Part shown: one piece after another, positions 661-33,097 of the stretch
Numbering within the stretch: the stretch's first letter is position 1
Layout: each line of letters opens with the position of its first letter
Assembly: GCA_965214225.1 (NCBI GenBank)
Contig: OZ243942.1
Span: 3,106,035 to 3,170,034, forward strand
Source of the DNA: Polyangiales bacterium
GTDB lineage: Bacteria > Myxococcota_A > Polyangia > Polyangiales > CBDCBC01
Direction: 5' to 3'
DNA length: 64,000 bases
The notes under the pieces: generated by a model
Told to the model about the DNA's origin: nothing
The model's database searches: none
The model's input: only the letters and a program-made list of their open reading frames with translations
Translations under genes and position numbers: made by a program

Positions 661-762
661 GCCAGTCCCTAACGTCGAAGAGTATCATAACTTGATGCAG
701 GAACCGAAGATGCACGCTCCGCCTGCACCTTCGGAAGCCTAACCGCGTACTGATGCACCGAT

Positions 763-798
763 GCAAATCAGGTGCCAAACGCAAATCAGGTGCCAAAC
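763..798. repeat. 18-bp direct tandem repeat x2 (GCAAATCAGGTGCCAAAC)
   Basis: Two identical adjacent copies read directly from the sequence, in the intergenic spacer. Confidence 0.8.
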
Positions 799-1020
799 CT
801 GAGACAGCCCAGCTGAGCCCAGAGATGAGGCGAGGTGAGCCAAGGGTCCATTCCTTTCGGGGGAGATGCTTCACAGAGCGTGGCCTATCCACCCGATTAG
901 CGCCCCAAATCGCCCAAGGTGAAGGCAAGTGCAAAGTTGATGAAGCTCTGCGTATTCCGCACGCGCGTCGGCAGGCTTCGCTTGTTTCGCTACGAACCCC
1001 GGTATGGTATCCGGAGCGTG

Positions 1021-1227
1021 TAAACGTTCCCCCCCAAGCCTATGCGGTTTTCGAGGGTGTTTCAGCATCGAGCGCGCCCGCACGGCTAGGAGACGCGCAG
1101 TTGTGTGCGTAACGACGACGCCGGATGACGAAAGCCGATGCTGGAACATCCTCGGAATGGAGTTCTCGTCGTTTCACTCCTGCGATCCCAGTGGTTTTAT
1201 GCCTCCGAGGGGGGGCTGAACACTTAC
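1021..1227 (+). mobile_element. MITE-like non-autonomous element, copy A (about 207 bp)
   Basis: Near-identical to the reverse complement of 32174-32348 except for a 30-35 bp internal indel. Imperfect terminal inverted repeats: TAAACGTTCCCCCCC ... GGGGGGGCTGAACACTTAC. Flanked by the direct repeat CGGAGCGTG at 1012-1020 and 1228-1236. No ORF of its own. Confidence 0.7.
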
Positions 1228-1380
1228 CGGAGCGTGTCCGATCTGGCAGACCCTGCCTTCAGCGAGAGCAGAAGCCCGGGAGCACAATCGCGCGCTCCAT
1301 CAGCTTAAGGCGCACTTCTCAAAAATCTCTCAGCGGCACACTACATGTCGACGAGCTCAGCCGTAGTTCACGCCCGCTAG

Positions 1381-5663: not shown

Positions 5664-6362
5664 TTAGGTGACTACCGTGCCGTTGGGCCGCCTTTCACAC
5701 CGCTCGCGATCGACCAGGCGGGGGTCATGTGGAGGGCTGCTGCCGCAGCTAGCCCGATCTCTTAGCCAGCTGCGGTAACGCTCGGCTCGGCGTGAAGCAT
5801 CGGGTGCCAGCGAGGTGTACCAGCTGTGTGGCGTCCAGGTTTGACGGAAACGGTCGAGACTGTGGAGAGGTTCAGGTGCAGCAAGATGCATCCACGCAGT
5901 GCTCCACGGGTAGTGCTCAGGGTCTTCAACAAGGCCCGCCCGCACAGGATTCAGGTCCACGTAGGCGAGCACCGCAGCGAGCTGCGCTTCGCTGGTTGCG
6001 GGTTTGCACCCGAAGCGCTCCTCGAAGAGCTTGCCCGAGTTTCCCCGCCTCTTGTTCCTTCTCTGGGCGTAGCGCTGACACGTCAGCTTCAAACATAAGG
6101 ACAAGCTTGGCGCGTCGGCTGCCGTCAGCACCAGATGCGCATGGTTGGCTAGGAGAGCGAACCCGTGGAGCGACGCACGTGTGCGGTGCATGGCGTCACT
6201 GAGCAAGTCTAGGAAGGATGCGTAGTCATAGGCGTAAGAGAATAGCCGACGTCGGTTGTTCCCACGCAGCCAGACGTGATGAGGGGCGTTGCCAACGACT
6301 TGGTATGCGCGAGGTTTGCGGGCCACGATAAGAGGTCGTGCAATGCATGAAATCGTTGCCAA
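5664..6362 (-). CDS. Y1 (HUH) tyrosine transposase, REP-associated (RAYT)/IS200-like family
   Basis: HUH motif in LLANHAHLVLTA, RGNNRRRLF near the N-terminus, and a catalytic-Tyr region AYVDLNPVRAGLVEDPEHYPWS. Single gene with no TnpB partner. The track start is TTG. Confidence 0.8.
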   Translation of the reverse strand: MATISCIARPLIVARKPRAYQVVGNAPHHVWLRGNNRRRLFSYAYDYASFLDLLSDAMHRTRASLHGFALLANHAHLVLTAADAPSLSLCLKLTCQRYAQRRNKRRGNSGKLFEERFGCKPATSEAQLAAVLAYVDLNPVRAGLVEDPEHYPWSTAWMHLAAPEPLHSLDRFRQTWTPHSWYTSLAPDASRRAERYRSWLRDRASCGSSPPHDPRLVDRERCERRPNGTVVT

Positions 6363-30218: not shown

Positions 30219-32021
30219 TTACTCGCTGCCTACGCGCAGCACGGCATGGAAGGCTTCCTGCGGGATTTCCACGCGGCCCACGGACTTCATCCGCCGCTTG
30301 CCGGCTTTCTGCTTCTCTAAAAGTTTCCGCTTGCGGCTGATGTCGCCGCCGTAGCACTTTGCAGTGACATCCTTGCGCATCGCCCGGACCGTCTCCCGCG
30401 CGATAATGCGCGCACCGAGCGCCGCCTGAATGGCCACTTCATACTGCTGCTGTGGAACAATCTCTTTGAGCTTTTCAGCCAAAGCTCGGCCCATGTGGTA
30501 GGCCTTGTCGCGGTGTACGATGGCGCTGAGCGCATCCACCCGGTCACCGTTGATCAGCATGTCCAGCCGGACGAGCGGATTCCGCATGTAATCCGTCACT
30601 TCGTAGTCCATTGATGCGTAGCCCTTGGTCAGAGACTTCAGCCTGTCGAAGAAGTCGAACAGCGATTCGGCCATGGGTAGCTCGTACGTGATGATGACGC
30701 GGTCGGCCGAAGCATACTGGACGTTCTTCTGGATGCCACGCCGCTCCTCGCACAAGCTAATCACAGCGCCCACAAAGCGGCTCGGCGTGTGGAGCGACAT
30801 CTGCACATAGGGCTCCTCGATTCGGTCGATCTTGCCGGGGTCCGGCAGCCGCGAAGGGTTCTCTACAAGGAGCACCTCATTGTCAACGGTGTAGACCTTG
30901 TAGATGACGCTTGGGGCTGTCGTGACAAGGTCAAGATTATATTCCCGCTCAAGCCTCTCCTGCACCACGTCCATGTGCAGCAGTCCAAGGAACCCGCAGC
31001 GAAACCCAAGACCGAGCGCGTCTGAGGAGTCGGGTTCAAAGGCCAGGGCAGCGTCGTTGAGCTGCAGTTTCTCCAGCGCCTCCCGCAGCTCGCCGTACTG
31101 ATCGCTGTCACTGGGAAACACACCAGAAAACACCATCGGCTTGATCTCTTGAAAGCCGGGAAGGGGTGAGGCAGCAGGCTCGCGTGCGAGGGTGATCGTG
31201 TCGCCTACCTTGGTTTCGGTGACGGACTTAATGCTCGCCGAAATGAATCCCACTTCGCCTGCTCGAAGCTCGGAGAGTGCCTGCGGAAACGGAGAAAAAA
31301 CACCAAGCTCGGTAACGTCATATTCGCTTTTGCCCACCATCATGCGCATCCGGTCGCCCTTGCGCAGCACGCCGTCGACCACGCGTACCATCACCATTGC
31401 GCCTCGGTAGGCGTCGTACCAGCTGTCGAATATCAGCGCGCGGAGCGGCACGTCGCGCCTGGCGGTTGGCGGAGGAACTTCACGCACGATGGCCTCGAGT
31501 ACGTTGTCTACCCCTTCGCCGGTTTTGCCACTCGCCGCCACGGCATGTGTGGTGTCCAGGCCGATGACTTCCCGAACCTCGCGCTCGACACGCTCGACGT
31601 CGGCGCCTGGAAGGTCCACCTTGTTGAACACCGGAACAATAGCCAGGTCATTCTCTACAGCCAAGTAGGTGTTAGCCAGAGTTTGCGCCTCCACGCCTTG
31701 CGTCGCATCCACAATGAGCAAGGCCCCTTCGCAGGCAGCAAGAGAGCGTGAAACTTCGTAGCTAAAATCCACGTGACCCGGCGTGTCAATCAGATTGAGC
31801 TGGTAGACTTGACCGTCTTTTGCTGTGTACGACAGACGAACGGTTTGCGCCTTGATCGTGATCCCGCGCTCTTTCTCAAGTTCCATCTTGTCGAGAAACT
31901 GCTCGGTGCGCTCACGCGCCGACAGCGCGCCGGTTACATCGAGAATGCGGTCTGCCAGGGTGCTCTTGCCGTGGTCTATATGAGCGATGATCGAAAAGTT
32001 GCGGATGTGACTGGCTTCCAT
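30219..32021 (-). CDS. lepA: translation elongation factor 4 (LepA)
   Basis: [34 protein letters not shown], and the LepA-specific C-terminus (...[26 protein letters not shown]). Confidence 0.97.
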
Positions 32022-32173
32022 GGCACCAACGTTCGCGGTTATCTCAAGCTTCTGCTGGGCGCGGTGAGGCCACTGCGACCAGCTCGGAGAAGCTAGCTTA
32101 CCGACCTCTGCTGCTCAACCTGCCCAACCTGCTCATCTCGGTTAATCTGCGCCACTCGGCCTAGCTGAGGCCT

Positions 32174-32348
32174 GTAAGTGTTCAGCCCCCCTCGAAGGCG
32201 TAAACCACGGTTTCCGAGGATGTGTCAGAATCGGCTTCGTCCTCCGGCGTCGTCGTTACGCACAAAAGTGCGCGCCTCCTAGCTGTGCGGGCGCGCCCGA
32301 TGCTGAAACACCCTCGAAAACCGCATAGGCTTGGGGGGTGAATGCATA
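32174..32348 (-). mobile_element. MITE-like non-autonomous element, copy B (about 175 bp)
   Basis: Reverse complement matches copy A (1021-1227) apart from a 30-35 bp deletion and a few substitutions. Flanked by its own direct repeat CTGAGGCCT at 32165-32173 and 32349-32357. Lies 10 bp beyond the stop of the RHH gene. Confidence 0.7.
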
Positions 32349-32367
32349 CTGAGGCCTTGGCTGCCGC

Positions 32368-32562
32368 TTATGAACTTCGTCGTGCAACCTCTTCCAAGCT
32401 GAGCTGTCCTGGAAGCTCTTCTGCATACCGCCGAAGGACGAGGTCGATTCCCTCCCGAATGTACACGGCGATTGGCACCTTTGTGCGCTCATGAAGGGCT
32501 TTGAGCCGCTCATTTTGCTCTGCGGTGATGTAAATTGTGGTGGAAATCTTCTTCCGGCCCAT
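32368..32562 (-). CDS. ribbon-helix-helix (CopG/Arc-like) DNA-binding protein
   Basis: 64 aa. KKISTTIYITAEQNERLKALHERTKVPIAVYIREGIDLVL follows the beta-strand/helix/helix RHH pattern. No adjacent toxin or ParA gene is recognisable. Confidence 0.65.
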   Translation of the reverse strand: MGRKKISTTIYITAEQNERLKALHERTKVPIAVYIREGIDLVLRRYAEELPGQLSLEEVARRSS

Positions 32563-33097
32563 GCCGCTTGCCTACCCGCGCGCTTCTGCGCCTTAAAGAG
32601 CACAGAAAGTTCCATAAAAGTAGCACGAAACCCGCGCAGCCGACTACTTCTTGGTCGTCACCGGTCAGAGGCAGACCCACCAGGAAGGCACGCCCGCCGA
32701 GGAGGTTGCGCATCCGGCTTTCTTCGTTGAACGCCATCCTCACGCACCTTGGTTACCTTGGTGCGCCCCGGTGGGCCTGGTGTGCAAAATCAACCTGGGA
32801 GGCGCTTGAAGGCGTGAGGTAAGTCAGCCCGAGTGCGGAGCACCCCTGGCCGTCTGCATCGGCTGCTAAGGCCGTGATGATGGAGCGCGTAGACCGGACG
32901 CGGGTAGCGGGAGGCGTTACGCGGTTCATCACGGCCTAGTTGGCTTTTTATGGGCGTCGTGCCAAAATATCGGCCAATCTAAGGGCAGCTTGCCGGAGGC
33001 GGCTTGTCAGCGCCGAAGGGACGAAGTGGCGGCGCGGAAGAAGTGGCCGCGCACATGCCGTTCTCCGGACGGCCTCAGGACTCGATCGAGGAGATCT

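Follow-up and report, generated by a model that had tools for sequence, protein, structure and literature searches.

The inverted repeats of IS66-family insertion sequences (IS) begin with GTAAGCG, and the direct repeats that flank these elements are 8 bp long (PMC11946415, citing TnCentral); the inverted repeat of ISPsko1, for example, reads GTAAGCGTCCGG... (PMC12888890). The single-ORF members of the family make up the ISBst12 group, which is also characterized by 8-bp direct repeats and includes ISDge4 with its transposase of 449 aa (PMC12898284). The canonical members (IS66, IS679, ISPsko1) are 2.5-2.8 kb long and contain three ORFs (tnpA-tnpB-tnpC). Bacterial MITEs are mostly intergenic and are mobilised in trans by a cognate IS. 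Our search of the literature for a described IS66-derived MITE family found nothing specific, and the link from IS66 to MITEs is poorly documented in the literature searched. Described bacterial MITEs such as Correia/NEMIS, MITEAba12 and the IS982-derived Cardinium MITE share with the elements analyzed here the short size, the inverted repeats, the individual target duplications and the foldback structure but belong to other transposase families and have duplications of other lengths.

The stretch of 64,000 nucleotides that we analyzed (hereafter, the window; C1:3106035-3170034, in contig C1 of a 3.67-Mb genome assembly with 59% G+C, 6 contigs and ~95% completeness) contains two copies of such an element, with the following features:

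1020-1227, + strand (genome C1:3107054-3107261): MITE copy A, long form, 208 bp
1012-1019: left 8-bp target-site duplication of copy A, CGGAGCGT, read directly, its length taken from the family-wide analysis
1228-1235: right 8-bp target-site duplication of copy A, CGGAGCGT, read directly
1020-1035, + strand: left terminal inverted repeat of copy A, GTAAACGTTCCCCCCC, from the alignment of 22 copies (family consensus GTAAGCGTTCACCCCCC)
1210-1227, + strand: right terminal inverted repeat of copy A, GGGGGGCTGAACACTTAC, read directly and from the alignment
1158-1191, + strand: 34-nt module, TGGAGTTCTCGTCGTTTCACTCCTGCGATCCCAG, the indel between the long and short forms
32174-32349, - strand: MITE copy B, short form, 176 bp, a foldback hairpin
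32166-32173: first 8-bp target-site duplication of copy B, TGAGGCCT on the + strand (AGGCCTCA in element orientation)
32350-32357: second 8-bp target-site duplication of copy B, TGAGGCCT on the + strand

The original prediction, made from the window alone, described the two copies as near-identical apart from an internal indel, and alignment confirmed this description at these positions: the copies are ~92% identical in the 128 nt that they have in common and ~89% identical in the 37 nt at the right, and the indel is the 34-nt block of copy A (1158-1191), which is replaced by ACCG in copy B. The element starts with GTAAGCGTTCA, its first base being G, and finishes with TGAACACTTAC. It contains no transposase gene, and the ORFs that enter it are only Arg-rich read-throughs. 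Among these are the ORFs at 753-1112 (+) and 32256-32615 (-), whose look-alike C-termini had been noticed previously and are indeed tails read from the element, so that the MITE accounts for both spurious tails, which is chiefly an annotation gain.

A BLAST comparison of both copies with the 3.67-Mb genome identified ~23 family copies at 87-95% identity, besides more distant relatives, which rules out a chance origin of the window pair. The long form is represented by ~13 copies of ~208 bp (89-95% identity) and the short form by ~10 copies of 173-180 bp (roughly 176 bp); the MITE core had no exact match among metagenome contigs. In the alignment of 22 copies, the terminal inverted repeats (GTAAGCGTTCACCCCCC and GGGGGGCTGAACACTTAC) are complementary at 17 of 18 positions, that is, imperfect, as had been proposed, and a second, subterminal inverted pair is located further in. 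Being small, multi-copy and gene-less, with terminal inverted repeats and target duplications of their own, the window repeats are a MITE, and on this central point the original prediction is upheld by the ~23 copies of 176-208 bp, each with inverted repeats and an individual target duplication. The tree of the backbone of the 22 copies is star-like and poorly supported, with the long and short forms interspersed.

Pairing all GTAA[GA][CT]GTTCA ends with at most one mismatch in inverted orientation at a spacing of 40-450 bp delineated a wider superfamily of 48 inverted terminus pairs that bound elements of 60-401 bp. As is typical of bacterial MITEs, the insertion sites are mostly intergenic: across the junctions of reconstructed empty sites, an open frame of at least 300 aa spans 8% of the sites, compared to 62% of 2,000 random positions. 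Across the reconstructed site of copy A, the open frame comprises 195 aa of Arg-rich junk. Two composite elements (C1:1767185-1767584, 400 bp, and C1:3469575-3469939, 365 bp) each contain a copy of the window MITE with a degraded right end, followed by a further 160-220 bp that finish in a proper terminus, and the outer 8-bp duplications of both composites are perfect.

The flanks of the 48 pairs match at 8 of 8 positions in 20 cases, at 7 of 8 in 15 and at 6 of 8 in 5, and every duplicated 8-mer is distinct among the superfamily insertions; no target-site consensus was seen in 36 insertion sites. Because every copy has its own target duplication, the family spread by transposition rather than by segmental duplication, as had been argued from the different direct repeats at the two window copies; with all the sequences different and 35 of the 48 pairs matching at 7-8 of 8 positions, this reasoning holds genome-wide.

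What required correction is the length of the duplication. The 9-mers that had been described as bracketing the copies do exist (CGGAGCGTG at 1012-1020 and 1228-1236 for copy A; CTGAGGCCT at 32165-32173 and 32349-32357 for copy B), but the true footprint is 8 bp in both cases: the left 9-mer ends with a G that already belongs to the element as its first base, and many other copies show flanks that match at 8 of 8 positions and differ at base 9, such as C1:1072744 (ACGGCATC then g/t), C1:1715959 (CTTCGGTA then g/a) and C1:1961450 (AATGAAAG then g/c). Of the 36 insertions with a flank match of at least 7/8, 10 have G as the ninth flank base, against a genomic G content of 29%; given that this is the background frequency, the target duplication is 8 bp long, and both window copies just happen to have G at the ninth position. 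The proposed genome-wide count of copies and their flanks thus yielded the anticipated many copies with variable duplications, which, however, are 8 bp in length instead of 9.

An empty site, another suggested check, could be restored within the same genome for a sibling MITE (C1:2459520-2459698, 179 bp, duplication CGTACACC), which sits within a copy of a ~60-76-nt hairpin repeat. When the sibling and one 8-mer are deleted, the remainder aligns gaplessly across the junction with many uninterrupted paralogues of the host repeat, and these hold the 8-mer of the sibling's site once.

To which transposase family do these elements belong? The consensus left end of the MITE in the 22-copy alignment, GTAAGCGTTCA, begins with the IS66-type motif GTAAGCG. 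The pattern GTAAGCGTTCAGG derived from the termini is patchily distributed among the 201 genomes of the order, with 29 matches in the window's genome, 200 in G045, 65 in G034, 42 in G067 and 4-8 in a few other genomes, compared to 0-2 matches with a reversed-pattern control. What these termini enclose in G045, G034 and G067 are MITEs of 48-275 bp, flanked by perfect 8-bp duplications. Two genomes of the order, G162 and G120, encode full elements of 1,535-1,554 bp with MITE-like termini (GTAAGCGTTCAGGGGGG / GTAAGCGTTCACGGGGGG and GTAAGCGTTCAGGCCCCAA / GTAACCGTTCAGGGGG) and perfect 8-bp duplications (CCAGCGAG, CCCACGAG, TCGATGGC and CACCGGAC); the left end of the G120 element is the same as that of the MITE at 17 of the first 19 positions. 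Each of these elements contains a single ORF, of 483 or 509 aa, with DUF6444 and DDE_Tnp_IS66 domains (and, in G162, also a weak, sub-threshold match to zf-IS66), and the ORFs match PF03050 at 3e-39 and NF033517 with 307 and 301 bits (NCBIfam cut-off 180). Beyond the first 11-19 bp, the MITE has nothing in common with these foreign IS copies.

The combination of GTAAGCG termini, 8-bp duplications and autonomous IS66 elements with the same termini places the family with IS66. Accordingly, the IS4, IS5 and IS1 types that had been named as candidates for the parental family were not borne out, the duplication being 8 bp, the termini GTAAGCG and the autonomous partners encoders of IS66 transposases. 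A single-ORF DDE transposase of the IS66 family, similar to those of the ISBst12 group, is very probably both the source of the MITE and the enzyme that moved it in trans, and the window element is one among many IS66/ISBst12-type MITE families in the order. Such a transposase, acting in trans, would recognise the 17-18-bp termini GTAAGCGTTCA(C/G)CCCCCC and cut the target with an 8-bp stagger, with the result that every insertion would be bracketed by its own 8-bp duplication. The element itself is a mosaic of IS66-type ends, ~75 nt of hairpin-repeat homology and, in the long form only, the 34-nt module.

The likeness to the ISBst12 group (ISBst12, ISDge4) consists in the GTAA... termini and the 8-bp target duplication (PMC12898284). 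The ISBst12-like autonomous relatives are ~1.5 kb in size with one transposase ORF (DUF6444 + zf-IS66 + DDE_Tnp_IS66), whereas the window elements are 176-208 bp long and non-coding, with an interior that is unrelated to any IS and comes from host repeats. Canonical IS66 elements, ISPsko1 (GTAAGCGTCCGGCG...) among them, share the GTAAGCG start and the 8-bp repeats with the window MITE (PMC11946415, PMC12888890) but differ from the partners in G162 and G120, which are single-ORF. These observations add to the case for single-ORF IS66 elements as a source of large MITE families, here with a patchy distribution across a Myxococcota-like order.

Mobilisation in trans by a transposase located elsewhere had been part of the original prediction. 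A DDE transposase acting in trans is indeed required, but no intact driver was found in the window's genome: a full-length IS with the MITE termini, the search for which had also been proposed, was found in G162 and G120 but not in the ~95% complete assembly of the window's genome. The only long terminus pair with a perfect duplication there (C1:278491-279971, 1,481 bp) is a MITE that carries an IS110-family insertion, not an autonomous IS. The search of the same genome for PF03050 produced two loci only, both defective:

C1:3225990-3227643: resident IS66 locus 1, 1,654 bp, termini GTACCTGGTCAGTC, no duplication, ORF frameshifted
~C1:1195032-1196311: resident IS66 locus 2, with one end, GTAACCGGTCAGTCCC; 5'-truncated, lacking the N-terminal domain and the second end

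The transposases of both loci are only 33-38% identical to those of G162 and G120, and their termini (GTAACCGGTCAGTC and GTACCTGGTCAGTC) differ from those of the MITE family. The family copies are on average 5.4% diverged from the consensus. From this divergence, 41% of the duplications are expected to be perfect and 39% to contain one mismatch; the observed values are 42% and 31%, respectively, among the 48 pairs, which include some false pairings. Because the decay of the duplications matches the divergence of the elements, the family looks like an old burst that is decaying neutrally. Given that the only resident IS66 copies are two defective, distantly related ones and that the MITE copies are ~5% diverged, the family is probably a fossil that is now immobile in the window's genome, judging from the sequences of its copies and of the potential drivers. 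The ~100 repeat termini per strand of this genome can be attributed to IS66-type MITEs that now appear to lack a resident driver.

The alternative that fares best is that the family is still mobile, cross-mobilised either by a resident IS66 with termini of the GTAACCGGTCAGTC class or by a copy located in the 5% of the genome that the assembly lacks. The resident IS66 termini agree with the right end of the MITE, GTAAGTGTTCAGCCCC, at ~12 of 16 positions, a second MITE class with resident-type termini has ~70 ends per strand, and the assembly is 95% complete, all of which leaves room for this scenario. Nevertheless, we consider continued mobility unlikely: neither resident transposase gene seems intact (the N-terminal domain and the left end are missing from one, and the other has a frameshift and no duplication), the closest MITE pair is only ~95% identical, and the equality of duplication decay and element divergence argues against recent activity. 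The second class, also IS66-type, has the termini GTAAC[CT]GGTCAGTC, which match the two defective resident IS66 copies; its members include C1:3053030-3053235, 2724588-2724763 and 239412-239553, and several copies have perfect 8-bp duplications.

In addition to the MITE copies, the window encodes a different type of transposase:

5664-6362, - strand: gene for a RAYT-like Y1 (HUH) transposase, solo and without a second copy in the genome

That the REP/REPIN-like spread of the elements by this gene product would explain the family is very improbable. In its favor, the gene is single-copy and RAYT-like (55.9 bits to NF047646, REP-associated tyrosine transposase, below the NCBIfam cut-off of 80), and the elements are hairpin-rich. 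To our knowledge, however, HUH/Y1 transposition produces no target duplications, which are present in 35 of the 48 elements (7-8 of 8 flank positions matching), and the termini are inverted repeats of the IS66 type; the view that the Y1 gene in the window is an unlikely driver is therefore sustained. Moreover, neither a MITE copy nor a module copy was detected in the surroundings of the Y1 gene, and the homologues of its product, encoded by 50 of the order's 201 genomes, have no apparent connection with the MITE; among the six module-carrying genomes, four encode a homologue. The REP/REPIN reading is thus contradicted for the whole element and could apply only to the 34-nt module.

Equally poor are the prospects of the repeats being genes for a conserved structured non-coding RNA. 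The extensive self-complementarity that had been reported for the interior is strong in copy B (-44.2 kcal/mol, computed as a DNA fold; z -5.1) but weak in copy A (z -1.9), the module interrupting the right arm of the foldback in the long form. The long hairpin of the short form and the probable location of copy B inside a transcribed gene pair are what an RNA gene would have to build on. Against it, the copies occur in both orientations with individual duplications, are absent from the sister genus and have no match in Rfam at the gathering thresholds or at E<=1. Covariation, which had been named as the pattern that would point to a structured RNA, was not observed among ten short copies: the covariation term of the RNAalifold consensus is unfavourable (+1.79), double changes affect just 2 of 56 pairs, in one sequence each, and pairing is disrupted by many of the substitutions. 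In scans for promoters and terminators, no site was predicted within either window copy.

The least probable reading, a MITE of a family with 9-bp duplications (IS4, IS5/IS903 or IS1 type), has in its favor the literal 9-bp direct repeats at both window copies and can be dismissed given that the ninth base is the element's own G and a background-level flank base elsewhere, that many copies diverge right after an 8/8 match, and that the autonomous elements bearing the GTAAGCG termini encode IS66 transposases.

In the window, copy B lies between two genes on the same strand:

32368-32562, - strand: gene for the RHH protein
30219-32021, - strand: lepA

The gap between these genes is 346 bp in the window, and the MITE together with one duplication accounts for 184 bp of it. 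In the sister genus (G001, L042 1500-1710), 15 bp without any element separate the RHH orthologue (83% identical) from lepA; this genome, the sole other representative of the same family, contains neither a copy of the element nor its termini. The insertion of copy B splits a seemingly conserved two-gene RHH-lepA unit. No contigs with an exact match to the flanking RHH protein were found, and no close relative yielded an exact empty site for either window copy.

The interior of the MITE has a separate history. Its centre (~75 nt) is 75% identical (57/76) to a hairpin unit that forms arrays with a ~120-bp period elsewhere in the genome, which indicates that a member of another repeat family was captured by the MITE. 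Tandem arrays of this ~76-nt unit are present at C1:3212066-3212485, 1336100-1336276 and 636785-637206. The right half of the long form, including the module, is common to other MITE families with the same termini at 73-82% identity.

The 34-nt module is found in 46 copies in several otherwise unrelated repeat families of the window's genome. Among 12 long copies, the mean minor-allele fraction in the windows that cover element positions 130-169 is 0.003, compared to the whole-element mean of 0.048, so that the module varies ~15-fold less than the remainder of the element. When up to 3 mismatches are allowed, it is present in 6 of the 201 genomes of the order, representing five families, in a different local repeat in each; a scan of genome contigs for the module identified one MAG only. 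This invariance could result from selection if the module is a binding site, from short-tract gene conversion between its numerous copies or from mobility of the module itself. It is possible, if doubtful, that the module is a functional or independently propagating unit rather than inert passenger DNA, and it could represent a REP-like protein- or RNA-recognition site. In G038 (C1 ~3513680-3513850; L007 1435-1611), a genome from a different family of the order, the module is bracketed by a direct repeat of ~65 bp, both copies of which contain the 3' end of a tRNA gene; this arrangement looks like a tRNA integration scar.

The module is also the site of insertion of a resident IS110-family element, for which two copies and two solo ends were identified:

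C1:278711-279886, - strand: IS110-family element
C1:2505889-2507080, + strand: IS110-family element
C1:2646097: solo end of the IS110-family element
C1:1284993: solo end of the IS110-family element

The ORF of this element encodes 332 aa and scores 234 bits on NF033542 ('RNA-guided transposase'). All insertions are within the 34-nt module and interrupt GAGTT-CT-CGTCG at the CT (3/3 left and 3/3 right junctions): the left ends all follow ...CCAGAGTTCT and the right ends all precede CTCGTCGTTTCACTCC, so that, compared to the intact module GAGTTCTCGTCG, CT is present at both junctions. REP sequences serve as insertion sites of IS110-family elements (IS621, ISPpu9/10). The module resembles these targets in being a short, conserved, dispersed sequence with a fixed IS110 insertion point (CT), but differs from them in being embedded in IS66-type MITEs and other repeats. 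If the invariance of the module is functional, the MITE would spread a specific target of an IS110 bridge-RNA recombinase, and IS66-type MITEs would then act as carriers through which a second, unrelated mobile element gains additional safe landing pads. The non-coding left end of the IS110-family element contains CAGAGTTC and CGTCGT strings, which could be bridge-RNA guides.
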